NCBI GenBank assembly: GCA_963976795.1
Contig: CAXBLT010000017.1
Location: 549-64,548 of the forward strand
Direction: 5' to 3'
Origin: an uncultured Gammaproteobacteria bacterium
GTDB taxonomy: Bacteria; Pseudomonadota; Gammaproteobacteria; Eutrophobiales; Eutrophobiaceae
DNA length: 64,000 bases
Both the position numbers and the translations under genes were made by a program. This document shows, in pieces, positions 11,715-52,565 of the stretch. The notes beneath the pieces are model-generated. The model was given only the letters and a program-made list of their open reading frames with translations, did no database searches and was not told the DNA's origin. Positions within the stretch are counted from its first letter, which is position 1, and each line of letters opens with the position of its first letter.

Positions 11715-12265
11715 CGAAAGAATCTATTACTACTGAAAACGCGCAGGCTGTGTTACATGATGCTGAGCAACTCTATAGCGAAAATGATGTTGAACAAGCT
11801 ATTGCTAACATCGCCATAGCCATTACGGAAAAACTATCTACTGATAATCCAATAGTTTTGCCGGTGATGAATGGGGGCTTGATACTAGGCGGGAAACTAA
11901 TACCGCAACTCGATTTCCCCTTACAGGTCGATTATATACATGCAACGCGTTATCGCGGTGCGACTAGTGGTAGCGAGTTACACTGGTTAAAGAGAGCAGA
12001 AATACCCTTGCAGGACAGAACTATTTTATTAATCGATGACATTCTTGATCAAGGCATAACACTTGCCGCAATAATCGATGACTGTTACAAACGTGGTGCT
12101 AATAAAGTACTCACCGCAGTACTGGCAGAAAAGATAATAGAACAGGACAAACCACTCAAGACTGCAGATTTTACGGGCTTAAAACTACCTGACCGCTATG
12201 TCTTTGGAAGTGGAATGGATTATCATGAATACCATCGTAACTTAACGGGTATTTATGCCATATGA
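11711..12265 (+). CDS. hpt: Purine phosphoribosyltransferase (hypoxanthine/guanine PRTase-like)
   Basis: PRPP-binding motif ILLIDDILDQGITL. About 185 aa. The six-frame ORF begins at 11678, but the MTKES start at 11711 avoids an overlap with the upstream gene. Confidence 0.7.
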   Translation: MTKESITTENAQAVLHDAEQLYSENDVEQAIANIAIAITEKLSTDNPIVLPVMNGGLILGGKLIPQLDFPLQVDYIHATRYRGATSGSELHWLKRAEIPLQDRTILLIDDILDQGITLAAIIDDCYKRGANKVLTAVLAEKIIEQDKPLKTADFTGLKLPDRYVFGSGMDYHEYHRNLTGIYAI

Positions 12266-13014
12266 GTAAAATTGCAATCATAGGTGGCAGCGGTTTGACA
12301 GAGCTGCCGGGCTTACAAATCATTGATAAGATCGAAAGAGAAACTCCATGGGGAAAACCTTCTGCAACCATTACCATTGGCAAGGTAAATAATCTTGAAA
12401 TTTTATTTCTACCGCGCCATGGCAACCCCCATACGATTCCACCACACAAAGTTAATTACCGCGCAAACCTTTGGGCGTTACATGAAAGCAGTGTCAGCAA
12501 GATAATTGCGGTTAATGCAGTTGGCGGTATTACGCAAAAAATGACACCCTGCCGTATAGTAATACCCGACCAACTCATCGACTATACTCATGGTCGTTCA
12601 GATAGCTTTTACGAAGAGAACCTGTCTGAGGTAAAACACATCGACTTTACAAACCCTTATTCAGAAATATTACGCCGGCAATTAATAAATGCCGCAACAG
12701 AAGCTAAAATCGATATTGTTAGCACAGGAACATATGCTGTAACCCAAGGACCCAGGTTGGAAACAGCTGCGGAAGTAGCTCGTCTGGAAAAAGACGGTAA
12801 CAACATCGTGGGTATGACGAGTATGCCAGAAGCTAGTTTAGCCAGAGAATTGGACATAGAATACGCCTGTTGCGCATTGGTCGTTAACTGGGCAGCAGGT
12901 AAAACCGATGAAGTCATTACGATGGAAGTAATAGAACATAATTTAACTGAGGGGTTGGAGAAAGTACAAAACTTGATAGCAAACTTCATTAATAATGAAT
13001 CAACTATCAAGTAA
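12262..13014 (+). CDS. mtnP: S-methyl-5'-thioadenosine / methylthioinosine phosphorylase (PNP family)
   Basis: MSKIAIIGGSGL N-terminus plus conserved PNP/MTAP core. The ATGA start overlaps the hpt stop. Confidence 0.85.
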   Translation: MSKIAIIGGSGLTELPGLQIIDKIERETPWGKPSATITIGKVNNLEILFLPRHGNPHTIPPHKVNYRANLWALHESSVSKIIAVNAVGGITQKMTPCRIVIPDQLIDYTHGRSDSFYEENLSEVKHIDFTNPYSEILRRQLINAATEAKIDIVSTGTYAVTQGPRLETAAEVARLEKDGNNIVGMTSMPEASLARELDIEYACCALVVNWAAGKTDEVITMEVIEHNLTEGLEKVQNLIANFINNESTIK

Positions 13015-13186
13015 ATTTATTGCTTGTCCCTATTGTGGTGAAAAAATAGAAATTGTCATTGATTGCAGTGTCTCTGAACAACACTATATAGAAGATTGCG
13101 AAGTGTGTTGTCGACCAATAACTTTATCAGTGTCGGTTGATGAAAATGAAGAAGTCGTTGTATATCCTAAACACGAAAATGAGTAA
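12995..13186 (+). CDS. Small cysteine-rich CPXCG zinc-ribbon protein
   Basis: 63 aa with CPYCG...CxxCC motifs. Overlaps the mtnP 3' end by about 20 nt. Confidence 0.5.
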   Translation: MNQLSSKFIACPYCGEKIEIVIDCSVSEQHYIEDCEVCCRPITLSVSVDENEEVVVYPKHENE

Positions 13187-13215
13187 TAAATATTTCTAAT
13201 GATGGAAAATTAACT

Positions 13216-13686
13216 ATGAAATATAGTCTACTAATATTATTTATTTTAAGCTTGATCGCATGTGAGCAAACAGAGCTTAGTTGGCATACTATCAACGCAG
13301 AGATACAGAAAAAGTTTCCGGAAATAGAACGCATCACGATCAATGAGCTAAATGCAAAAGATCATGCAAACATAATTCTCATTGATGTTAGAAAAAAAGA
13401 AGAATTTATGGTCAGCCATATTGCTGGCGCAATAAATCTGACAGATCCCTTTGACATTGCAGAAATAGCATCAGAATCAGAGAAAGATGTTGTCGTCTAT
13501 TGTTCAGTCGGCTACCGCTCAGCAGCAGTCGTACATGAATTGAAAAATCTAGGCATTAGTAATGCGGTAAATCTAGAAGGGTCCATCTTTGCCTGGTCTA
13601 ATGCAGGTCTGCCGCTTGTCAACAAAGCAGGCCGTACTCGTGACGTACATCCCTACGATGAATATTGGGGGCAACTACTGGATTAA
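13216..13686 (+). CDS. Rhodanese-domain sulfurtransferase, predicted lipoprotein
   Basis: Signal peptide with lipobox LIAC. Rhodanese active-site loop YCSVGYRS. About 156 aa. Confidence 0.75.
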   Translation: MKYSLLILFILSLIACEQTELSWHTINAEIQKKFPEIERITINELNAKDHANIILIDVRKKEEFMVSHIAGAINLTDPFDIAEIASESEKDVVVYCSVGYRSAAVVHELKNLGISNAVNLEGSIFAWSNAGLPLVNKAGRTRDVHPYDEYWGQLLD

Positions 13687-13708
13687 CAGTAAAAGCCTGC
13701 CTATAAAC

Positions 13709-14404
13709 CTAATTACTAGACCTAAGTCTGCTCACTTGTAGAATCACACCAAACATTGGGTGATCAAAGTAGTGGATCTCATTAAGTTTAATCTTCCGGG
13801 TTTCTTTAAGTTTTATCACTGTTTTATTTGTAGTGCCTACGAACGACTCTTCACTGGTGCGAAGGATTTTATTCTCAGCGGGAAGGTCCTTGAAATATGA
13901 AAAATCAACATCAACATGTAAATAAAAACCACTTCTTATCCTGATTGATCCGTCAATAATTCTATTTAGTGGCATTAAATCATCTATAAATTCAGGCTCA
14001 TCATCCAAGCCAGCTGATTCCGCAACAGGAATAGTCGAATTAGCATCCAGTTTCTGTAAATGAACGTAACGCGATTGCCTACGTTCCGTAGCTGGTTGTT
14101 GCCAGGATAGATGTATCAGTGGTCTGTATTGGCTAGAGAGTTTGAAAGCACGTTGCACACCATTTAAACGATTACGATCTTTAGGCAGAATCATATAGGG
14201 AAGCAGGCCATCGCTTGTCTCAGTTGCTTGCAGCTCAATCAAATTGTCTCTCATGGAAAACGTTTCATTTTGCCATTGTTCACCATCCAAATCAGGATTG
14301 ATCCTATCAAAGACAACGACTTCAACCTGATACCAGGATGCGGCTGTTACAGTAGGTGGAAAAACAAAAAGTAAAACGAGGAGACTAAGTTTAAAATGAT
14401 TCAT
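13709..14404 (-). CDS. Periplasmic protein, possibly CsiV family
   Basis: Cleavable signal peptide. About 230 aa. Located immediately downstream of mfd, as csiV is in Vibrio. The family assignment comes from context and size only. Confidence 0.35.
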   Translation of the reverse strand: MNHFKLSLLVLLFVFPPTVTAASWYQVEVVVFDRINPDLDGEQWQNETFSMRDNLIELQATETSDGLLPYMILPKDRNRLNGVQRAFKLSSQYRPLIHLSWQQPATERRQSRYVHLQKLDANSTIPVAESAGLDDEPEFIDDLMPLNRIIDGSIRIRSGFYLHVDVDFSYFKDLPAENKILRTSEESFVGTTNKTVIKLKETRKIKLNEIHYFDHPMFGVILQVSRLRSSN

Positions 14405-14411
14405 ATGCCTA

Positions 14412-17400
14412 TTATGCCGCGATCTTTAGTGCAATTTCATTAAAAAGATATTCTAATATCTGTAACCTTGATTCGGCATCGGGTAAGTCTTTACTAATCC
14501 TGAGCTTATCCTGTCCATCAAGTTTGTAACTACTCGGATCGGATTGAATCAAATGGATAATACGTCCAGGGTCTATATTAGCATCTGGCAGGAAAAAGAC
14601 CCGGCCACCCTTCAAGCCCATATCAATTTTACGAATACCCAGTGGACGTGCTAGTTGCTTGAGATTACTTACCGCAAATAGATTTTTAACCGCGTCTGGT
14701 AATAAACCGAATCTGTCGATCATTTCTTCCTTCAATTCATTAAGCTCCGAACTTAATTTTGCACTAGCAATGCGTTTATACATGATTAAACGCATATGAA
14801 CATCAGGCAGGAAGTCTTCAGGGATCAAGGCGGGGATGTGCAAGTCAATCTCAGCACCATGATCAAGTGGTCGATCTAACTCAGGCTGCTTACCTTCTTT
14901 CATAGCATGCACCGCTCTGTCCAGGAGTTCCATGTACAGACCAAAACCTATTTCTTGTATATGTCCGCTTTGCCCCTCACCTAGTATTTCACCTGCACCT
15001 CTTATCTCAAGATCATGCGTAGCCAGAGTAAAACCAATACCTAATTCTTCCAAAGCTTCTATGGCTTCAAGGCGTTTCACAGCATCCGCAGTCATGGCTT
15101 TACGTGACGGGACAATGAGGTAAGCATAGGCGCGATGATGTGAACGACCTACTCGTCCACGTAATTGATACAACTGAGCCAAACCAAATTTATCAGCTCG
15201 GTTGATGATGATGGTATTCGCTGATGGGACATCGATGCCTGTTTCGATAATGGTTGTACAAACAAGAACATTAAAGCGACGGTGATAGAAATCCAACATG
15301 ATCGATTCGAGTTGCTTCTCTGGCATTTGTCCATGCGCAAACTCAACTCGGGCTTCAGGTAAAAGTTTGCCTATTTCTTCTGCCGCCTTTTCTATGGTCT
15401 TGACTTCATTATGCAGATAAAAGACTTGACCTCCACGTTTGATTTCTCGCAACATGGCTTCTTTTAATAAGGTGTCACTGCGTTCGCGTACAAAGGTTTT
15501 TACCGCAAGTCGCCTCGCTGGTGGTGTCGCAATGATAGAAAGTTCTCGTAGATCTGACAGCGCCATATTTAATGTCCTGGGGATTGGCGTAGCCGTTAGC
15601 GTTAATACATCAATTTCTGCACGTAATGATTTGAATTTTTCTTTTTGCCGCACACCGAAACGATGTTCCTCATCAATAATAATCAAACCCAGGTTTTTAA
15701 AGTTAATATCAGCTTGTAATAGCTTATGCGTACCGATAACTATGTCGGCTTTACCATCCGCCATTGCAGATAAGGCAACGTCTTGTTCTTTTTTTGATCG
15801 GAAACGTGATAATAACTCAATGCGTACCGGCCATTCAGAAAATCGATCAACAAAATTTTGGTAGTGCTGTTGTGCTAACAAGGTCGTCGGCACCAATAAG
15901 GCAACTTGTTTTCCATTTTGTACGGCAATAAAGGCAGCACGCATTGCAACCTCTGTTTTACCAAATCCTGCGTCACCGCAAATTAATCTATCCATTGGTT
16001 TGTCACTGCGCATATCTTCTATCATGCTCTGAATGGCATCATATTGACCCGGTGTTTCTTCGAAAGGGAATTTTTGTGCGAAGACAAAGTACGCATCTTG
16101 GTCGAACTCGTAAGACTGCCCCTGTCTCGCCGCACGTCGCGCATGTAACTCTAATAGTTCTGCCGCAACATCATAGACCTTCTCTGCCGCTTTGCGTCGT
16201 GCCTTCTGCCATTGACCACTACCTAATTTATGTAACGGCGCATGTTCCGGATCAACGCCGGTATAACGTGAGATCAACTCTAATGCCGCAACAGGGACAT
16301 AAAGCTTATCGCCTTCTGCATACTCAAGGTGAATAAATTCACCAGGTATACCGCCAGCGTCAATGGTAATCAGTCCACAATAGCGACCGACACCATGATC
16401 TTCATGGACAACAGGTGAACCTACACTCAATTCTGTCAGGTTACGAACAACCGCTTCTGCATCTTGTTGCTTGCGTTTACGCAACCGTCGTTGCATAACA
16501 CGTTCACCAAACAATTGTGCTTCAGTTATGATAGCAATATCAGGTTCATGCATTATCAAGCCATTCTCAATGGGCATGATTGCAATAGCAAACTCAACAT
16601 CACTCTGGAGGAAACTATCCCAATTTTCTATTTTAGCTGGTGCGCCACTGTGCTTGAATAATTCCATGATAGTCTCGCGACGACCTTGAGTTTCTGCTGC
16701 AATCAATACGCGACCATCGAACTCATTTAAAAAACGCCTGACTAATGCGAGAGGTTCTTTAGCTCGAGCATCTATTGAGAGGCTGGTTGGTAGTTCAGAG
16801 TTGAATTCAATATAAGCAGAACTGGATTCAGGCGATAGATTTACTATATGCACCTGTGGGTAAAGTTTAAAAGCCGTATAAAGGTCGTTAATATTCAGAA
16901 AAACTTCTCGTGGCGGTAATATGGGTCTTTCCACATCGTAACGTTCTTGCTCATACCGCGATTCAATATCTTCCCAGAATGTTTCAGCCGCTGCTTTAAC
17001 GCCTTCATCTAATACGAGAATTGAATCTTCAGCGACATAATCAAATAAAATGCTGGTCTCTTCATAAAAGAGTGGCAAATAATACTCTATACCTGCTGGC
17101 GCGAGTGATTGGCTCACATCACGATAAACGGGGCATTGTGCCGGGTTACCTTCAAATCGCGCGCGCCAATTAGCACGAAAACGAGCGATTCCTTCATCCA
17201 CCAATGCAACTTCTCTGGCGGGTAAAACACGTATCGATTCGACTTTATCAATCGAGCGTTGTGTCTCAATATCAAAAGTGCGAATACTATCAACCTCATC
17301 ATCGAATAAATCGATACGAAAAGGATTTATAGCTCCCATCGGGAATATATCGAGTAAAGATCCTCGTTTTGAAACTTCACCATGTTCAGTAACCTGATCA

Positions 17401-17885
17401 ACAAAACGATAACCTTGTTGATTCAACTGTTTTCTAAAATCTTCAAGCTTGATAAATTGGCCCACATCTAAAACCAGACTATTTGAAAACAAATAATCAC
17501 AAGGAATTAGACGATGCATGATTGTGGTTATTGGGACAACCAAGATACCTTGTTTTGTATTGGGCAAATTAAACAGGGTTTGTAAACGGTCTGAAATGAT
17601 ATCCTGATAGGGAGAGAACAGATCATAAGGTAATGTCTCCCAATCAGGGAAAGTAATAACCGGAATTGAACTACTGTCTTTTATGTATACATTCAATTCA
17701 TTAATAAGGTTAACTGCACTGATAGTATCGGCAGTAACTACAATGATTGGCTTTTTTGTTTGCATTGCCATATTGGCAATAGCAAGTGACCTTGCACTAC
17801 CGTATAAACGAGACCAATTAATTCTTGATTGACCCGGCTCAGGCAACACTGGTGACAACACATTTTTTCGCACGAACTCAGACAT
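14412..17885 (-). CDS. mfd: Transcription-repair coupling factor
   Basis: 1157 aa. DEAD/DEAH helicase motifs GDAGFGKTEVA, DEEHRFGV and QLRGRVGRS, plus UvrB-homology and TRG regions. Confidence 0.95.
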   Translation of the reverse strand: MSEFVRKNVLSPVLPEPGQSRINWSRLYGSARSLAIANMAMQTKKPIIVVTADTISAVNLINELNVYIKDSSSIPVITFPDWETLPYDLFSPYQDIISDRLQTLFNLPNTKQGILVVPITTIMHRLIPCDYLFSNSLVLDVGQFIKLEDFRKQLNQQGYRFVDQVTEHGEVSKRGSLLDIFPMGAINPFRIDLFDDEVDSIRTFDIETQRSIDKVESIRVLPAREVALVDEGIARFRANWRARFEGNPAQCPVYRDVSQSLAPAGIEYYLPLFYEETSILFDYVAEDSILVLDEGVKAAAETFWEDIESRYEQERYDVERPILPPREVFLNINDLYTAFKLYPQVHIVNLSPESSSAYIEFNSELPTSLSIDARAKEPLALVRRFLNEFDGRVLIAAETQGRRETIMELFKHSGAPAKIENWDSFLQSDVEFAIAIMPIENGLIMHEPDIAIITEAQLFGERVMQRRLRKRKQQDAEAVVRNLTELSVGSPVVHEDHGVGRYCGLITIDAGGIPGEFIHLEYAEGDKLYVPVAALELISRYTGVDPEHAPLHKLGSGQWQKARRKAAEKVYDVAAELLELHARRAARQGQSYEFDQDAYFVFAQKFPFEETPGQYDAIQSMIEDMRSDKPMDRLICGDAGFGKTEVAMRAAFIAVQNGKQVALLVPTTLLAQQHYQNFVDRFSEWPVRIELLSRFRSKKEQDVALSAMADGKADIVIGTHKLLQADINFKNLGLIIIDEEHRFGVRQKEKFKSLRAEIDVLTLTATPIPRTLNMALSDLRELSIIATPPARRLAVKTFVRERSDTLLKEAMLREIKRGGQVFYLHNEVKTIEKAAEEIGKLLPEARVEFAHGQMPEKQLESIMLDFYHRRFNVLVCTTIIETGIDVPSANTIIINRADKFGLAQLYQLRGRVGRSHHRAYAYLIVPSRKAMTADAVKRLEAIEALEELGIGFTLATHDLEIRGAGEILGEGQSGHIQEIGFGLYMELLDRAVHAMKEGKQPELDRPLDHGAEIDLHIPALIPEDFLPDVHMRLIMYKRIASAKLSSELNELKEEMIDRFGLLPDAVKNLFAVSNLKQLARPLGIRKIDMGLKGGRVFFLPDANIDPGRIIHLIQSDPSSYKLDGQDKLRISKDLPDAESRLQILEYLFNEIALKIAA

Positions 17886-17897
17886 TAAATTTGAAAC

Positions 17898-18611
17898 TTA
17901 AACGGCTGAATTGATTTCGGCATTTATAGCGTTTAATGCTACAAGTGGATCATCTGCTTTGGTAATCGGACGCCCAATAACCAGATAATGACTACCGGCA
18001 ACAATAGCTTCGGATGGTGTCATAATGCGTTTTTGATCATCATTACTTGAATTAGCTGGACGAATCCCAGGTGTTACCAGACAAAATTCTTTACCTAACT
18101 CAGTGCTTAGATGTTTAGCCTCTTTTGCTGAACAAACAACTCCATCTAAACCAGATGACTTTGCCAACTGTGCTAATAACATTACCTGCTTATCAACAGA
18201 ATTAGCTACGGCAATCTCTCTGAGGTCATCATCCGCCATGCTGGTAAGGACGGTCACGGCAATGAGTAATGGTTTATGAGTGCTTTTGTCGAGAGCTTCA
18301 CATGCTGTTTCCAACATAACCCGGCCACCTGATGCATGAACATTAAGCATCCAGACCCCTAAATCTGCAGCAGCACGACATGCACTGGCTACAGTATTCG
18401 GAATATCGTGGTATTTAAGATCGAGAAAAACATCAAACCCCATCTTAATAAAACGTTCAACTAAAACAGGACCTTCACGAGTAAAGAGTTCTTTACCAAT
18501 TTTAAGCCTACAGGCTAATGGATCCAGATTTTGACAAAGGTTCAATGCTTGTTTTGCATCAGGAAAATCTAAAGAAACTACTACACGACTATTATTCACC
18601 AGCAACTCCAA
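17898..18611 (-). CDS. pyrF: Orotidine-5'-phosphate decarboxylase
   Basis: VVSLDFP...LKIG N-terminus and [10 protein letters not shown] motif. Confidence 0.92.
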
Positions 18612-33872: not shown

Positions 33873-34330
33873 CTCTATAATATTTCATATCCATGGTTAT
33901 CATTTCATTACGGAAGCGAAGAATATGATTTTGAACAGGGATTTGAACTTGAGGATATTTGGCAAAGACTCGATAGAGAAAAACAAAAAATCACTATGAT
34001 ATATCTTCAAAAATTGATGATATAAGAAAATATAAAATTGAACCTATAGTATTAGTGTTGATTAGTTTTATTTTCCCTTATGACTTGCCGAAGGATTCTT
34101 CTATTTTAATGGTTGAGCAACATGGATGTTGCGAAAGCGTATTGACGACAGGGACATCGTCTATACGCGTGCCGTTGAAATGAAATAACCCCGAGGGTCT
34201 CCGTAGGACAAGTCATTGGGGTGCCCTTTTTTCTTGGTGTCTTCTTTTTTTGGGCAAGCAAAAAAGAAGTTACTCGCCGTAAAAGGCGAAACTAACGTAA
34301 AAAAGAATAATGAAGTTATTATTTGACTGG

Positions 34331-45351: not shown

Positions 45352-45894
45352 ATGAAAAAATCTTCCGGTATTTCAGACGAAGACAGTGCGTTATTTCGTC
45401 AATCAGTTGGCGATGCCCGGCCATTAAAGCAAGATAGTTTTATTGCTGAGAAACCAAAACCCAAAGCTCACCCTGCGAAAACAGAAGCCGATAACCTTGC
45501 GGTCCTTGAGGAAATGAGTGTCGCAGACTTTGACTTCGCTCTTTTGGAGAGAGGAGATGAGCTTTTCTATACCAGTCCTGGACTACAAAATAATATATTA
45601 AAAAAATTACGCCGAGGTCATTATAAGATTGAAGCAGAATTGGATTTGCACGGCATGACGGTTGATAGTGCTAAGATTGCATTAACTGATTTCCTTAAGC
45701 AATGTACAGTACGCTCTCAACGCTGCGTTAGAATCATTCACGGAAAAGGGTTGGGTTCCGTCAACAAACAACCGGTTATAAAAAACAAACTTAATCAATG
45801 GCTACAAAAAATGGACATTGCACAAGCCTTCTGTTCGGCAAGACCTGCTGATGGCGGTACCGGTGCAATTTATTTGTTATTAAAACGTAAATGA
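45352..45894 (+). CDS. Smr-domain protein (SmrA/YdaL-like)
   Basis: C-terminal Smr motif LDLHGMTVDSA...IIHGKGLGS. 180 aa. Confidence 0.8.
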   Translation: MKKSSGISDEDSALFRQSVGDARPLKQDSFIAEKPKPKAHPAKTEADNLAVLEEMSVADFDFALLERGDELFYTSPGLQNNILKKLRRGHYKIEAELDLHGMTVDSAKIALTDFLKQCTVRSQRCVRIIHGKGLGSVNKQPVIKNKLNQWLQKMDIAQAFCSARPADGGTGAIYLLLKRK

Positions 45895-46175
45895 TGAGAA
45901 ACAGAAGTATTAATAAATAAAAAAGTAGTATGACAGTAACCCGATAATGATTTAGCTTCGCTGTTTGTTACCTACACAAGAGCATCTAGTGTCAGGTAAT
46001 ATCAGGTTTAGATATCACTGAAGAATATCAAAATCAGGTTTCGAGCAAAAATTATCACTAATAACACACATATAGAACTTAATGACGGTTTATCTGTTCT
46101 AAAAACGTGCATCATTCACTATACTTGTATTATTATTCAATAATTAATAAGAATAGTAAGATTCAGGGATAAGAT

Positions 46176-47252
46176 ATGATGTTATCACGTCTGAGTAACG
46201 TTGCTGGAAGTAAAACTTCATCAATAATATATATTGTCGATGATGAACCTGTCAGCAGAATGTTACTGAGTAAAACTATTGAGAATATTAATTCTGAAAT
46301 AACTGTAAAGTCATTTCAAAGTGCACCTGCAGCACTTGCCGCGCTTGAGACCTCCCCGCCCGACTTGATAATCACTGATTACAAAATGCCTATCATGAAC
46401 GGTGTTGAATTCACCAAACGGATTAGAAGACTGCATAATTGTAAAGACATCCCGATCATCATGATAACGATTATTGATGATCGTTCTGTTCTATACGACG
46501 CATTAAAAAGCGGGGTTACAGAGTTTCTTAATAAGCCATTTGATAAAGTTGAATGCGAAGCACGGTGTAAGAATTTATTGGCTCTGGGAAAACGTCAAAC
46601 AAAATTAAAACAACGTAGCTTTAAACTTGAAAAAAAGATCAGTGAAACTTCAGAGGAAATTCATGTCAGAGAAAAAGAAACATTAATACGTTTAACGAGG
46701 GCATGTGGATTTAAGGATTGCGTCACAGGTGAGCATCTCCTCAGAATTGGTCGAATAAGCAGGATTCTTGCACTGGAACTGGGCTTTGATGAAACATTCG
46801 CAGAAATACTGGAAACATCTTCCCCGTTACATGATATTGGGAAACTGGCTATACCAGACAATATTTTGATGAAAAAAGGTAAGCTGACTGAACAAGAGTT
46901 TGACATTATGAAGACACACACAACAATTGGTCATGAAATACTCAAAGACAGCCCATCACCTTATTTACAAACAGGCGCATTAATTGCTCTTAATCATCAT
47001 GAAAAATATGATGGTAGCGGTTATCCAAATAAAATACCGGGAAAGGATATTCCTATAGAAGCCAGAATCGTTGCCGTTGCAGATGTATTTGACTCATTAA
47101 GCAACCATAGGCCCTATAAAAAAGCCTGGCCAATCAACAAAACTATTGATTATCTGGTAGAACAACAGGGGCAGCATCTTGATCCGGAGTGTGTGAAGGC
47201 ATTATTGAGTAGAATTGATGATGTAGAACTACCGCCAAAAAAAACACAATAA
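46176..47252 (+). CDS. rpfG: Two-component response regulator with HD-GYP phosphodiesterase domain (RpfG-like)
   Basis: REC domain IYIVDDEP...DLIITDYKMPIMNG. HD-GYP motifs HDIGK and HHEKYDGSGYP. Confidence 0.85.
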   Translation: MMLSRLSNVAGSKTSSIIYIVDDEPVSRMLLSKTIENINSEITVKSFQSAPAALAALETSPPDLIITDYKMPIMNGVEFTKRIRRLHNCKDIPIIMITIIDDRSVLYDALKSGVTEFLNKPFDKVECEARCKNLLALGKRQTKLKQRSFKLEKKISETSEEIHVREKETLIRLTRACGFKDCVTGEHLLRIGRISRILALELGFDETFAEILETSSPLHDIGKLAIPDNILMKKGKLTEQEFDIMKTHTTIGHEILKDSPSPYLQTGALIALNHHEKYDGSGYPNKIPGKDIPIEARIVAVADVFDSLSNHRPYKKAWPINKTIDYLVEQQGQHLDPECVKALLSRIDDVELPPKKTQ

Positions 47253-47270
47253 TGGTTTCATTGTGTAACC

Positions 47271-49826
47271 ATGAAAAATAAATTAGTACACTTAGTTAAA
47301 ACTCGTTTGCAAAACCGCGAAGATTCTGAGCACATACAAACCGTTGTCAGATTTGCCATGGGTGTTACCTGGCTGCTATATATATCGTGGTTAAATCGAT
47401 TTACACACATTGATTCTGCTGCTGCAACGGCGACATCGTATTTGTATATTATTTGCTGTCTTCTAAATCTGGTTTGGATAGTGATTACTCCAAAACCGCT
47501 TCCCGTTCGTCGCTACGTTAGCATTTTTCTTGATATATCATTTGCATCGTTTGCATTTTATCTTATAGGAGAATATGGGGCACCCTTGATTGGCGCATAT
47601 TTATTTTTAATATTTGGCTATGGATTTCGATACGGAAATAAGTATTTATACATAAGTACCGCCATCAGTATTGCTGGAGTTTCTTTGGTGATGATATACA
47701 GCTCTTATTGGCAAAAAGAGATCATGCATGGATACGGTGCCATTATTTCAATAACGATCCTATCTGCTTATGTCTCGACATTGATATCACTACTGCATAA
47801 ATCAATTAATGAAGCCAACTCCGCAAATGAAGCGAAAAGTCAATTTCTGGCAAATATGAGTCATGAAATTCGTACACCGTTGAACGGTGTGGTCGGGATG
47901 AGTTCATTGCTTTCCACAACTGAACTCAATAGTAAGCAACAAGAGTATTCATCGACTATTAATGCTTCGGCCAAAACATTGTTGGCATTAATCAATGATA
48001 TCCTCGATATTTCAAAAATAGAGGCAGGAAAGATAACGATAGAACAAGTAGATTTTGATCTGCATGCTCTTATTAACTCAACAAGTAAAATGCTCTCTCC
48101 ACAAGCGGTAAATAAAGGACTGAAGTTTAACGTTCATATCTCACCTGAGGTTCCTTTTTTACTACGTGGTGATGAGCAACATTTAAGACAAGTACTGATT
48201 AATCTTATTAGTAATGCTATCAAATTCACACAAAATGGTTCTATTGAAATAGTTTTATCTTTAGTCTCAACAGCAGAAAATAAAGCCAGAATAATGTTTA
48301 AAGTCATCGATACGGGAATTGGTATCGCAAATGAATCAAAAGACAATATATTTGAAAAATTTACTCAGGCAGATGCTTCTACAACTCGTAATTTTGGCGG
48401 GACAGGACTTGGGATGGCCATTGCCAAACAATTAGTTAATGCAATGCACGGAGAAATAGATTTCACCAGTGTGTTAGGAGAAGGTTCAACGTTCTGGTTT
48501 AGTTTGGAATTTGAACAACAAACCGTATTGTCAGAAGAAAACCAGTCACTGGAACATTTCTCTGGTGCCCATATTTTAATCATCAACCCAATAAAAGAAA
48601 AACAACAGACTATCCAGGAACACCTCTCATTGTGGCCAATATCATATAAACAATCTGACCGTGCTCAAGATGCGATAGATATGATCATGTCTGCTAACGC
48701 TGAAAATAATTCGTTTAATGTCATCCTTGTTTTCAAGAAGTATCTTGACACAGACCCTGTTAATTTTATTAAGCAGGCTACAACAAAATCAAGCTTCAAA
48801 GACCATTCATTCATACTCATAAATGATAACGAATTACCTGAGTCCGGAAAAACAGATCTATTACAGGCAGGCTATGCCTCCATAATACGTAGTAATCTTG
48901 ATAGAACAAAATTCTTCAGGACATTGCATGCCGTTATTTCTGGTGTCAGTGCCATATCACCTAATAATAACATTCGTGGTTTTGATAATAAGTCAGCTGA
49001 TATAACTCAAGTAAAAAAACTAGAAATACTCGTTGGTGAAGATAACAAGACAAACCAACAAGTAATCAAAAGTATTCTGGAATATGCTAACCATCATGTA
49101 ACACTAGCTAATAATGGAGAAGAAGTATTAGATATTTTGGAAGAAGATACATTTGATCTGATTATTCTTGATATGCAGATGCCTGTTATGGGCGGAATAG
49201 AGGCTGCAAAAATATATCGTCACATGTATCCGGAGAAACGCAGTATTCCAATATTGATGCTAACAGCTAATGCTACAAAGGAAGCTCATGATGCATGCAA
49301 GGAGGCAAAACTGGATGCTTATTTAACCAAACCCGTAGAACCGGATAAACTTGTCAAGGTTATCGCTTCGCTTGTCGGTGACGACCATGAGGAAACACCG
49401 GTTGCTAGCAATGAGGCATTAAAAGTTGTTGATATAAATAATCCTAATAATTCGCCATTAATAGACAAAGACTCTTTGGAGTCTTTGGCTTCTATGGCCA
49501 GCGACAAATCATTTATGAAAACCTTAATAGAAGGTTACTTACGTGACACTGCTAATTCTCTAAAACACATGTCCCAATTTTCCAGTGATGACGATTACAA
49601 TAAATTATCAGAACTTGCTCATAGTGTCGATGGAAGTTCTCGTTCAATTGGTACTAAAAGATTATCAAGAATTGCCGACTTAATATATAAACAAGCCCAA
49701 TCCAGACAACACAAACTAATTTTAAACAATCTGGATTTAATCAATAGCGTATTCGAAGAAACACAAACTGAATTAAAATCATTCCTTTCAAAGACTGCTT
49801 CATCAAATTCGCAACAAAATAGCTAA
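47271..49826 (+). CDS. rpfC: Hybrid sensor histidine kinase (RpfC-like). Architecture: membrane sensor, HisKA, HATPase, pseudo-receiver, receiver, HPt
   Basis: About 5 N-terminal TM helices. H-box [12 protein letters not shown]-boxes DTGIGI and GGTGLGMAI. Receiver [12 protein letters not shown]-terminal HPt motif [11 protein letters not shown]. Confidence 0.85.
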
Positions 49827-49848
49827 GTTAATACATCAAGTTTTATAA

Positions 49849-49874
49849 TTAATGGGACATCCTTGTCTCATTAA
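49849..49874. terminator. Hairpin between convergent rpfC and desaturase genes
   Basis: ttaatgggaca-tcct-tgtctcattaa, an 11-bp stem with one G-U pair. Confidence 0.45.
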
Positions 49875-49902
49875 TAAAATGCTTATCTAATTTATAATTT
49901 AG

Positions 49903-50988
49903 TTATGCTGCTTTTGCATAACCCTTTTCTTCTATTAATACTGTTTTGTTACTAGTTGCATTTCCTGAAAAATCCATCCATAAATGATTATCATAATCAT
50001 ATAATTTGCATTTTCCCATCGTTGCAAAAAAGCTCACTAGTGAAAAGTCCATCGTAATTAAATCCTCTCCGTACAACTCACATAGAACTGTCTGTGCTTT
50101 TGATAAATTATAGAGAGGTATTCTCGGATCAACATGATGCGCCGTGTGCTCCATTGCATTGTGACTAATCAAATTATACCAATGCGGATATTTTATATGC
50201 ACAGTTATATCTTCGAGAGTTGCGTATGCATTACATTCTTTTTGAGTCTTAAACCATGGAACAGTTTCGTGAGTATGATGTTGATACACAGTCACTCCTA
50301 TCAAGAAATTACTTACAAGAAAAGGAAGCACTAGTCCTAACAATATTACTTCTAACGGACTTGTGTATGCGACGTGCATCCCCATATAAATAAGTACTGT
50401 TGTAAAAGCTGCCATATAACTAACTACTAGTACGAAATCCAGAAAATAAGCACCATTTTTCTGTTTGATAATTCGTTTGTATGGAAAAAACTTATCTTTC
50501 CACCAACGTTCAATCATGTAGTTGAAACAAATTCCTAGTGGAGAACGATATAAATGTTCTATCAGCTTTCGACTTGCAGACAAACCATCATATTCTTCTT
50601 TTGACAATGGCGACCATGAATTTATACCTTTAATGTTAGGAGATTGATGGTGTGAGCGATTATGTGCGATTAACCATAAACTGTAATTATGAAATGAAGG
50701 TAAAAAGGCTATGCGGCCTATTATAGAATTCCATACTCGGTTGGATGTAAAACTATCATGTCCCGCATCATGTGAAACCAGGAATAACGTCCCTATTCTC
50801 AGCCCTGCTATAACACTACATGTTATTCTTAACAGCAGGCTTTCAAACATGATTGTCCCGGCTATCGCCAATGCATAGATAGTGAGATCAGAAAAAAATA
50901 TAAATAATGCAAGTTTATTTGATGGTTTTGCGTACTGTTTTATTGAGTGCCGTAACTCTTTTGTATTTAAATTATTCATTATAATCAC
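49903..50988 (-). CDS. Integral-membrane fatty-acid desaturase family protein
   Basis: Three histidine boxes, HDAGHD, HNRSHH and HTAHH, with multiple TM segments, as in PF00487 desaturases. 36 nt downstream of the rpfF-like gene. Confidence 0.8.
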   Translation of the reverse strand: MIIMNNLNTKELRHSIKQYAKPSNKLALFIFFSDLTIYALAIAGTIMFESLLLRITCSVIAGLRIGTLFLVSHDAGHDSFTSNRVWNSIIGRIAFLPSFHNYSLWLIAHNRSHHQSPNIKGINSWSPLSKEEYDGLSASRKLIEHLYRSPLGICFNYMIERWWKDKFFPYKRIIKQKNGAYFLDFVLVVSYMAAFTTVLIYMGMHVAYTSPLEVILLGLVLPFLVSNFLIGVTVYQHHTHETVPWFKTQKECNAYATLEDITVHIKYPHWYNLISHNAMEHTAHHVDPRIPLYNLSKAQTVLCELYGEDLITMDFSLVSFFATMGKCKLYDYDNHLWMDFSGNATSNKTVLIEEKGYAKAA

Positions 50989-51024
50989 CTGTTCCTAAGC
51001 TTGTTTAATTGTTTTACGTAATAA

Positions 51025-51930
51025 TCAAGATACACTTACTTTTGAATATTCATGCTGGTATTCTGTCTCGTACCTTTTCTGACTACGCAACAAACGATTG
51101 ATTGTCCTAATATCTTTATCAGAGATATCAAAAACTGTATCAACCCAAGAGTCACAGCAAATATCCATCAGCTCCTGTTGGTCATAGTGATTTAAATTTT
51201 GAACTATTTTTTGCATCGCCATATTTCCATTCCAGTTTTTATTATGGTTTTGGACATATGAATAAACGGCCTCTTCGCCGCAGTGATCATCCACAAGAAC
51301 ATCAATAATTCCCATGTCATATAATTCTTCTGCGCTATATAAATTACCGCTGGAAATCAGTTTATGAGCCTTGTTTAACCCTATTCTTGATGAGAGTGTC
51401 TGGAATGCCCCCATGCCAGGAAAACAATTAAACAATATTTCAGGAAAACCCATCATTGCTGAACGCTCTGCAATGATCACGTCACCTGATAATGCTATTT
51501 CAAAGCCACCACCAAGTGCATTTCCCCTAACCAAAGATATAGTGACAATGGGTAAATTAAAATTTGTCATTATCGGATAGATCGCTTTTATACAATTAGC
51601 TGCGTATTTCTCCAGAGCTATTCTGTCCTTGTTTTTAATACAATTTAAAAAATGATTGAGGTCACCACCTAAACTAAAGACTCCATTCGCGTGTGAATCA
51701 AGAATGTGATACTTAACCGTTTGCATTTCTCCATCAATGGGTAGCTGTCCATTATTAATTTCAATACATCGATGCAAAGTTCGAATATCATCAACTAATT
51801 GTGGCGTTACACACGGCTTTGGAAATGCATCCAGGTAAACCCAAACTATTCCATCATCAGCATCAAATTCATAATTAATGTGTTCAAGCTTATTGATCGT
51901 ATTTTTCAAATTAAAATTTAACGTACTCAT
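51025..51930 (-). CDS. rpfF: Enoyl-CoA hydratase/crotonase-family DSF synthase (RpfF-like)
   Basis: VRGNALGGGFEIALSGDVIIAERSAMMGFPEILFNCFPGMGAF...GNLYSAEEL closely parallels Xanthomonas RpfF (VQGNALGGGFEAALSCHTIIAEEGVMMGLPEVLFDLFPGMGAY...GNLYSAEQL). 301 aa. Confidence 0.8.
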   Translation of the reverse strand: MSTLNFNLKNTINKLEHINYEFDADDGIVWVYLDAFPKPCVTPQLVDDIRTLHRCIEINNGQLPIDGEMQTVKYHILDSHANGVFSLGGDLNHFLNCIKNKDRIALEKYAANCIKAIYPIMTNFNLPIVTISLVRGNALGGGFEIALSGDVIIAERSAMMGFPEILFNCFPGMGAFQTLSSRIGLNKAHKLISSGNLYSAEELYDMGIIDVLVDDHCGEEAVYSYVQNHNKNWNGNMAMQKIVQNLNHYDQQELMDICCDSWVDTVFDISDKDIRTINRLLRSQKRYETEYQHEYSKVSVS

Positions 51931-52091
51931 ATGTAGTCTCCTGTTTATTTGACTTACTAATTTAGTTAATTGAAAACAGAGTCATTAAAACAAGCTTAAC
52001 GCCAAAACACGAAATGACCCGGAATCGTTTAACGATGGATCAAATTTAAAAGACTAAAATGAAATTTAAAAGAAAAGAATTTTCAGAAAAA

Positions 52092-52565
52092 TTATAGAGA
52101 TGTTATTAAAACGACAGCATATACAGCAATGCCTTCGCCACGACCGATAAAACCCATTTTTTCAGTAGTCGTCGCCTTGATATTGACGTCAGTAGATTTT
52201 GCTTCAAGATCTGTAGAAAGATTTTTCTGCATTGAAGAAATATATCCTGCCATCTTTGGTGCTTGTGCCAAAATAGTTATGTCTGCATTACCCAACACAA
52301 ATTTATTTTTTTTCATTAAATCATGAACTTGCCGCAACAAAATTCTACTATCAATATTCTTTAATTCTGGATCTGTATCGGGAAAATGTGAGCCAATATC
52401 ACCCAAACACATGGCCCCAAGTATCGCATCACAAAGAGCGTGAATTACCGCATCTGCATCAGAATGGCCTTCTAAACCTTTCTCATAGGGGATTGTGACA
52501 CCACCCAGAATCAAAGCTCGACCTTCGACAAGACGGTGGGCATCGTAACCATGTCCAATTCGCAT
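52092..52565 (-). CDS. ispF: 2-C-methyl-D-erythritol 2,4-cyclodiphosphate synthase
   Basis: [12 protein letters not shown]...HSDAD motif. 157 aa. Confidence 0.93.

Follow-up and report, generated by a model that had tools for sequence, protein, structure and literature searches.

The diffusible signal factor (DSF) system, which signals by means of fatty acids of the cis-2-unsaturated type, has been studied almost entirely in plant and human pathogens. The present analysis concerns a chromosomal locus in a 64,000-nucleotide stretch of DNA (the window) from an uncultured gammaproteobacterium (contig CAXBLT010000017.1, positions 549 to 64,548). The locus reads as a working RpfF/RpfC/RpfG-type DSF signalling circuit, a reading to which we assign a probability of about 75 to 80% from the sequence, and it includes a membrane fatty-acid desaturase gene next to the predicted signal synthase gene.

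In Xanthomonas, the rpfGHC operon adjoins rpfF and is convergent with it (PMC4504480), and the presence of rpfB upstream of rpfF and of rpfH between rpfG and rpfC varies even among xanthomonads (reviews). Clusters of rpfF, rpfG and rpfC have previously been recognised in Methylophaga (marine), Leptospirillum, Thiobacillus and Methylobacillus (PMC4504480). These clusters have received little study. The system of Burkholderia and Cronobacter, based on the Burkholderia diffusible signal factor (BDSF) and its synthase RpfF-Bc/Bcam0581, has a cytoplasmic PAS-GGDEF-EAL protein, RpfR, as receptor and turnover of cyclic di-GMP (c-di-GMP) as output. The cis-2-decenoic acid synthase of Pseudomonas aeruginosa, DspI, sits in a fatty-acid catabolic cluster without a linked sensor.

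As read from the open reading frames (ORFs), four intact genes occupy positions 46176-51930 of the window and form two convergent units. Their coordinates, with those of the predicted sensor stretch of the kinase, are as follows (aa, amino acids; Xcc, Xanthomonas campestris pv. campestris):

46176..47252, + strand: RpfG-like response regulator, 358 aa, with receiver (REC) and HD-GYP domains (Pfam)
47271..49826, + strand: RpfC-like hybrid sensor kinase, 851 aa (Pfam domains, hydropathy)
47316..47339, + strand: predicted DSF-sensor codons 16-23 of the kinase, R-E-D-S-E-H-I-Q, counterpart of Xcc RpfC residues
49903..50979, - strand: membrane fatty-acid desaturase, 358 aa (Pfam FA_desaturase), between kinase and crotonase
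51025..51930, - strand: RpfF-like crotonase, 301 aa (Pfam ECH_1/ECH_2)

Like the Rpf system of Xcc, the locus combines a crotonase of the same clade, a kinase with an RpfC-type sensor followed by HisKA, HATPase, REC and histidine phosphotransfer (HPt) domains, and a REC plus HD-GYP regulator, all in convergent layout. It departs from the Xcc system in several respects. The crotonase is only 38% identical to RpfF and falls below the strict equivalog model for that protein; rpfB (acyl-CoA ligase) and rpfH are absent from the cluster, and ispF precedes the crotonase gene. The kinase carries an extra pseudo-receiver of about 150 aa, the HD-GYP domain retains a histidine where Xcc RpfG has phenylalanine, and a membrane desaturase is placed behind the rpfF-like gene.

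The three genes and the convergent layout are shared with the non-xanthomonad clusters of Methylophaga, Thiobacillus, Methylobacillus and Leptospirillum, whose crotonases, however, are at most 47% identical to that of the window and most of which are without a desaturase. Several non-xanthomonad loci (e.g., in Methylophilaceae) have a short, non-hybrid kinase with a degenerate sensor motif. Likeness to the BDSF system extends to the synthase, which in both cases belongs to the family NF006452, and to a predicted output in c-di-GMP turnover; in contrast to that system, the locus has an RpfC-type membrane kinase and an HD-GYP regulator, and no PAS-GGDEF-EAL gene of the RpfR type lies within it. 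With DspI the crotonase shares the fold, but the two match at only 45.5 bits, no better than generic hydratases.

A genome scan with one genome per species places the locus among many others. The 80 best loci, which were examined, come from Beta-, Gamma-, Zeta- and Alphaproteobacteria, and in most of them the crotonase is followed by a kinase in convergent orientation, whose input domain is homologous, and then by an HD-GYP gene. Loci with the convergent layout came from Methylobacillus, Thiobacillus, Sideroxydans and Gallionella and from many metagenome-assembled genomes (MAGs). In Xanthomonas, an rpfG-rpfC pair convergent on rpfF is the classical order, and in other species it is common. An initial interpretation made from the DNA alone (the sequence-only reading) had held this arrangement to differ from the classical order, and had described DSF loci as well known in Xanthomonadales and Burkholderia and unexpected in this lineage; the first view is corrected by the layout of Xanthomonas and of most of the 80 loci, the second by the clusters already in the literature, including that of the marine Methylophaga (PMC4504480). 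The same reading recognised three components, all of which are present, and left the fourth gene, the desaturase, unnamed, implying it only in the phrase "convergent rpfF operon". The locus is a member of a known, widespread system, and the linked desaturase is its sole non-classical and undescribed element.

Predicted synthase, sensor and regulator

The RpfF/RpfC/RpfG reading is well supported because family models, active-site residues, an RpfC sensor motif and conserved gene linkage all point to it, and on these grounds the complete DSF locus proposed in the sequence-only reading is borne out. Gene content, domains, functional residues, spacing, selection and linkage are seen directly; from them we infer every biochemical activity.

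Family models place the crotonase in the RpfF/BDSF-synthase clade. Pfam assigns it only to the generic families ECH_1/ECH_2. With the NCBIfam model NF006452 (equal to PRK08788) it scores 313.9 bits, above the cut-off of 177; calibrated with fragments cut from structure alignments, the same model gives 392 bits for Xcc RpfF and 391 bits for the protein of PDB entry 5fus, which we take to be of the Burkholderia BDSF-synthase type. The second-best NCBIfam model is the RpfF equivalog NF053515 at 199 bits, and ordinary hydratase models reach at most 72. Among PDB structures, the best matches are 3m6m (Xcc RpfF; 162.8 bits, E = 1.2e-46), 7zq7 (158 bits), 5fus (149.8 bits) and 6dgn (149.5 bits), compared with 58.5 bits for the best ordinary hydratase and 45.5 bits (E = 7e-11) for DspI (5wyb). 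The sequence-only reading had proposed this very alignment as a check, and the crotonase aligns with the RpfF side of it (150-163 bits) rather than with ordinary hydratases (at most 58) or DspI (45). Identity to the 5fus/6dgn protein is 34%.

The residues of the active site agree with this placement. Nine catalytic or substrate residues are described for RpfF (G85, L136, G137, G138, E141, E161, M170, W258 and L276; PMC9864630), and all nine are kept in the crotonase as G88, L139, G140, G141, E144, E164, M173, W262 and L280. Most of the nine are invariant across 23 crotonase homologues, among them E144 and E164, which align with the catalytic pair E141 and E161 of Xcc, as the sequence-only reading had suggested checking. 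Two of the motifs named there, GNALGGGFE (aa 136) and GNLYSAE (aa 195), are exact; the third, given as LFPGMGA, is the Xcc RpfF version of a motif that reads CFPGMGA (aa 169) in the window. Annotation pipelines already label close homologues "DSF synthase". When plasmids were searched with the crotonase, the homologues returned (29-37% identity; from Methylobacterium, Burkholderia and others) all bore generic names. An identical crotonase protein is found on about 20 contigs, 22 by one count and 19 by another, from Tara Oceans, ENA and Logan samples, and the Tara/marine contigs share the neighbouring genes.

In Xcc, DSF binds a 22-residue N-terminal sensor of RpfC, in which R15, D17, S18, E19 and Q22 are essential by mutagenesis and the relevant stretch reads R-A-D-S-E-H-A-Q (PMC5391125). 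The kinase of the window has R16-E-D-S-E-H-I-Q23 directly ahead of its first hydrophobic segment, so that R16, D18, S19, E20 and Q23 correspond to the five essential residues, and H21 to H20, with the same spacing. A signature of the form R-x-D-[ST]-E-H-E-Q stands at the N-terminus of many rpfF-adjacent kinases from many lineages. Within the window and all loci retrieved for comparison, 1.64 million ORF residues together, the pattern R.D[ST]E..Q turns up 38 times, each time at the N-terminus of an rpfF-linked kinase. Chance would not produce a similarity of this order, nor that of the crotonase to Xcc RpfF. Behind the hydrophobic N-terminus, Pfam recognises HisKA (H198), HATPase_c, Response_reg (D634) and Hpt (H784), the membrane hybrid kinase architecture that the sequence-only reading had likened to RpfC; the REC domain matches the RpfC REC chain 3m6m_D at 6.6e-21. 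In RpfC, which DSF activates, this domain restrains RpfF.

Two regions of the kinase, the input domain and an insert at aa 430-580, matched no Pfam family. The insert (about aa 430-580, some 150 aa), which follows the ATPase domain and precedes the true receiver, matches a REC profile in hhalign (97.4%, E = 9.6e-12) and has no acidic pocket, phospho-Asp or Lys, and because of this combination it is interpreted as a pseudo-receiver. Xcc RpfC has 726 aa, which would leave no room for such a domain. The input domain (aa 1-185, window 47271-47825) has 1,728 representative relatives at E <= 0.001, mostly kinases of 830-860 aa; some relatives carry two to four tandem copies of the domain, and others, stand-alone proteins 140-250 aa long, bring RpfH to mind. 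A word-indexed protein search with the input domain gave two matches and no named RpfC. In one ENA contig otherwise identical to the window (NODE_426, L002; compared loci are numbered with the prefix L), the kinase (12105-14659) is called as two ORFs, one of 387 and one of 470 aa, owing to a frameshift variant or to an error in the assembly.

The regulator matches Response_reg (1.5e-25, phospho-acceptor D68) and HD_5 (3.7e-35) in Pfam, as well as HD, and its HD-GYP domain matches the phosphodiesterase PmGH (PDB 4mcw) at 7e-53. The motifs HDIGK and HHEKYDGSGYP can be read directly. Seven of the eight PmGH metal ligands are kept (H187, H219, D220, H248, H274, H275 and D303); the eighth, E185 of PmGH, is V183 here, at a position known to vary between HD-GYP subfamilies. 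The catalytic D181 and K223, the G282-Y283-P284 motif and the substrate-binding R312 and K315 are also kept. The regulator, correctly compared with RpfG from the start, looks like an active c-di-GMP phosphodiesterase.

By homology to RpfF/Bcam0581, the crotonase would use E144/E164 to take from fatty-acid synthesis a 3-hydroxyacyl chain on acyl carrier protein, dehydrate it to the cis-2-enoyl form and cleave the thioester, yielding a free cis-2-unsaturated acid. Homology likewise suggests that the signal would bind the N-terminal sensor of the kinase at R16, D18, S19, E20 and Q23, and that the kinase would autophosphorylate on H198 and relay the phosphoryl group via D634 and H784 to D68 of the regulator. 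The HD-GYP domain, if it acts as its homologues do, would then hydrolyse c-di-GMP and switch c-di-GMP-controlled behaviour.

The linked desaturase

The fourth gene is predicted to encode a membrane di-iron fatty-acid desaturase of the Delta12/omega-6-like type. It matches FA_desaturase (PF00487) at 1.8e-25 (90.6 bits against a cut-off of 29.7), and its three histidine boxes, HDAGH (70), HNRSHH (106) and HTAHH (278), are invariant in 25 homologues. An AlphaFold model (mean predicted local distance difference test score, pLDDT, 85.7) has four long membrane helices, and its best matches among solved folds are 8xks_K (template modelling score, TM, 0.75) and 8xqw_M (TM 0.71), followed by AlkB. The protein fails the NCBIfam equivalogs DesA (Delta5) and DesB (Delta10), with 75.6 and 32 bits against 500. 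The family is labelled acyl-lipid omega-6 / Delta-12 by JGI, an automatic name only. The three histidine boxes, the four-helix membrane topology and the desaturase-like fold matches are those of Delta12/omega-6-type acyl-lipid desaturases (PF00487); unlike those enzymes, this subfamily adjoins DSF-synthase or DUF4442 genes and not lipid-synthesis genes.

The desaturase family is small (391 matches), and many of its members lie on contigs shared with crotonase matches. Linkage was followed in 80 loci that a search of metagenomes with the desaturase had brought up. Where the desaturase is at least 47% identical to that of the window and the flanks are usable, an rpfF-like and an rpfC-like gene are present in almost all loci. 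Several loci at 37-42% identity are also rpf-linked, with different gene orders and in other genomic contexts; the desaturase may stand upstream of rpfF or after the kinase, or all genes may lie on one strand. The linkage holds across at least four gene orders and in unrelated contexts (L043, L096, L117, L120 and L122). Beyond the desaturase and rpf genes, no further gene recurs with the desaturase at the compared loci.

A high-GC soil subgroup of the family (42-48% identity) lacks the linkage to rpf genes. Its desaturases directly follow a gene for DUF4442 (PF14539, hotdog/thioesterase-like) in at least two contexts. Because this thioesterase-like gene recurs upstream of the unlinked subgroup, the arrangement suggests that the desaturase family works with an acyl-thioester-cleaving partner. 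In L099, L103, L105 and L110, from soil and other metagenomes with 58-69% GC, desaturases at 42-46% identity lie directly downstream of DUF4442, and three related DUF4442-desaturase contigs have a Crp-like regulator and an AMP-binding ligase nearby.

Literature searches found no description of a desaturase within an rpf cluster. In a transcriptome of salt adaptation in Leptospirillum ferriphilum, RpfF was induced 10.7-fold and a fatty-acid desaturase 4.9-fold; the two were treated as unrelated, and adjacency of their genes was not stated (PMC9053815).

A tentative proposal, which we put somewhat short of even odds, is that the desaturase tailors the DSF signal. The co-transcribed enzyme would alter the acyl chain, most simply by introducing a second double bond, and would make the signal of this lineage differ from that of relatives without the gene; this step is suggested by gene linkage only. 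Four indirect points argue for tailoring: a linkage that survives rearrangement, spacing consistent with co-transcription, the recurrent thioester-cleaving partner, and disproportionate divergence of the sensor where the desaturase is absent, the last being confounded by phylogenetic distance. A more far-reaching version is somewhat less likely. In it, the rpfF-linked desaturases would be a dedicated signal-tailoring subfamily that makes an undescribed DSF-family signal (e.g., a cis-2,x-dienoic or oxidised acid), and the acquisition or disappearance of this gene, combined with a fast-evolving RpfC sensor (with a second receptor copy in one MAG), would split closely related ocean bacterioplankton into "dialects" at one conserved chromosomal site.

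Chromosomal site, relatives and alternative readings

Among species representatives, the nearest (93% and 91%) are the MAGs of two uncultured marine Gammaproteobacteria, and a cluster mate bears the name "marine bacterium B5-7", which denotes an unclassified gammaproteobacterium. The genome had been called Pseudomonas-like in the sequence-only reading, a label at odds with these MAGs and the Tara Oceans contigs as closest matches and with a GC content of about 41% across the window. The locus itself has 35-37% GC. In relatives whose enolase is 79-96% identical, its position is invariably between ispD-ispF and smrA-purL. Old and variable in content, the locus belongs to a fixed chromosomal site, and its place in a housekeeping block, once thought unexpected, is the ordinary one. 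A recent horizontal island, considered in view of the dip of 5-7 points in GC, was rejected since the same site is occupied in distant relatives.

Gene content at this site varies among relatives:

L087: desaturase absent, HD-GYP present
L088: desaturase absent, HD-GYP absent
L089: desaturase present, HD-GYP absent, kinase shortened
L091: desaturase present, HD-GYP reduced to a 39-aa remnant
L007: desaturase present, HD-GYP present, second RpfC-like paralog
L008 (MAG B_MB66): desaturase and HD-GYP deleted in a clean 5.3-kb deletion

The deletion in L008, a sister lineage, lies at L008 10731-10739 and equals window 45899-51199; it includes the kinase and the 3' end of the crotonase gene, of which the first ~243 codons remain, abutting smrA. 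In L007 (MAG OFTM147), the HD-GYP gene is separated from smrA by a second, diverged RpfC-like kinase (at about 16500-18050) that is absent from the window. This kinase has FKDRPDSELEQS at its N-terminus and shares ~70-74% nucleotide identity with parts of the first copy.

In the lineage of the window, purifying selection acts on all four genes. The ratio of nonsynonymous to synonymous substitution rates (dN/dS) against relatives is lowest in the crotonase (0.03), followed by the HD-GYP regulator (0.07), the kinase (0.09-0.12) and the desaturase (0.11-0.14). A decaying pseudogene cluster was rejected for the window on the basis of the intact ORFs, the dN/dS range of 0.03-0.14 and the identical crotonase on about 20 contigs; decay in some relatives is real. 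Divergence is uneven along the locus. L087, which has no desaturase, is 81% identical to the window in the crotonase, 80% in the HD-GYP regulator, 55% in the kinase and 45% in the kinase sensor domain, and L024 has an enolase at 88% but a crotonase at 43% and a desaturase at 35%. This unevenness in L024 and L087 suggests allele replacement or fast receptor evolution at the fixed site.

Several points weigh against a working DSF circuit. The crotonase does not reach the strict RpfF equivalog NF053515 of Xanthomonadaceae (199.2 against 550 bits), and for this reason it is treated as a clade member and not as an RpfF ortholog in the narrow sense; the 5fus protein, at 184 bits, also falls below that cut-off. 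The comparison of the kinase with Xcc RpfC rests on eight published sensor residues. The input domain of RpfC has five membrane helices, with the N-terminus outside the cell; in the window kinase, hydropathy gives five to six hydrophobic segments within aa 24-176, and a periplasmic position of the sensor depends on their number. Among relatives, the HD-GYP gene has been lost in L088, L089 and L091, the desaturase in L087 and L088, and nearly the whole locus in L008, which implies that the circuit is dispensable and may work differently or decay in some lineages. We infer the signal, its release and its perception in this organism, and a quorum-sensing role in dilute ocean plankton is not obvious. 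For the desaturase step in particular, the usual substrates of membrane desaturases are chains bound to lipid or CoA, not free short or medium acids, and linkage alone is no proof of action on the signal.

Three other explanations have been weighed against this one. That the crotonase is an ordinary beta-oxidation enoyl-CoA hydratase beside an unrelated two-component system is extremely improbable and contradicted by the sequence. The generic ECH_1/ECH_2 assignment in Pfam and the RefSeq name "crotonase/enoyl-CoA hydratase family protein" for related plasmid genes are compatible with such an enzyme, but it would have to account for 150-163 bits to RpfF-type structures against at most 58 for ordinary hydratases and 45 for DspI, for a score of 314 bits with NF006452 when the next non-RpfF model gives 72, for the kept RpfF pocket residues, and for linkage to an RpfC-type kinase in dozens of lineages. 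Also improbable, if less so, is a membrane-lipid or fatty-acid homeostasis module, in which the kinase would sense the state of its own membrane or free fatty acids, the crotonase and desaturase would remodel lipids, and c-di-GMP would be the output. Its model is DesK, the five-helix thermosensor for the Bacillus des gene. The shared operon of desaturase and crotonase, an input domain made of membrane helices only with no periplasmic domain, and the lack of an obvious need for density sensing in dilute plankton would fit such a module, as would the broad thioesterase activity of RpfF enzymes, by which the fatty-acid pool is disturbed (PMC4504480). The kinase nevertheless bears the specific DSF-binding residues of RpfC; the regulator has no DNA-binding domain and so no direct control of the desaturase operon; and the rpfF-rpfC-rpfG trio is kept in most lineages without the desaturase. 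Homeostasis and DSF signalling also overlap, in that a self-made DSF can report confinement or diffusion.

The explanation that comes closest, which we place not far below even odds, accepts the DSF circuit as real and takes the desaturase for a passenger, an ordinary membrane-lipid enzyme in a variable spot between rpfF and rpfC. The close relatives L087 and L088 have the locus without the desaturase, the subgroup at 42-48% identity is unlinked to rpf genes, and the automatic JGI name is that of an acyl-lipid omega-6 desaturase. A passenger would not be expected to keep its rpfF/rpfC linkage through at least four gene orders in unrelated contexts, or to sit 45 bp behind the crotonase with no terminator between, and the unlinked subgroup again has a thioesterase-like upstream partner (DUF4442).

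A complete, selectively maintained circuit in an abundant uncultured ocean gammaproteobacterium would make the DSF system part of ordinary marine microbial life, in line with metagenome surveys, in which rpfF genes are already counted. If tailoring is true, DSF biosynthesis would have in the desaturase its first dedicated modification enzyme, and signal diversification among related populations would be explained; with a passenger desaturase, the locus would be simply one more member of a known, widespread system. The natural variants at one site (with and without desaturase, with and without HD-GYP, with a duplicated receptor, or with a clean deletion) form a ready comparative series.

Gene spacing and intergenic regions

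The two convergent units are bounded and separated by three intergenic stretches:

45895..46175, + strand: 281 bp from the smrA stop to the HD-GYP start, presumed rpfG-rpfC promoter region
49827..49902, no strand: AT-rich gap of 76 bp between the convergent stop codons, with an imperfect hairpin, ATTAATGGGACA / TGTCTCATTAAT
51931..52091, - strand: 161 bp from ispF to the crotonase, presumed rpfF-desaturase promoter region

The kinase starts only 18 bp past the stop of the rpfG-like gene, and because of this short distance the two genes probably form one operon. On the opposite strand, an AGGAG ribosome-binding site lies 7 nt ahead of the crotonase ATG, and the desaturase starts 45 bp past the crotonase with its own AGGTGA ribosome-binding site. 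Scans of 45700-52300 returned 24 promoter-like sites, against 29.6 expected from shuffled sequence, and 3 terminator-like sites, against 3.5 expected. As these scans do no better than shuffles, the operon structure is drawn from spacing alone; both flanking stretches are presumed to be promoter regions, and it is only a suggestion that the hairpin ATTAATGGGACA / TGTCTCATTAAT could serve as a bidirectional terminator.

A scan of the 64-kb window against Rfam gave no match inside the signalling locus. The sole match across the window is a TwoAYGGAY RNA (RF01731) at 34066-34229 on the + strand, with 50.6 bits against a gathering score of 43.

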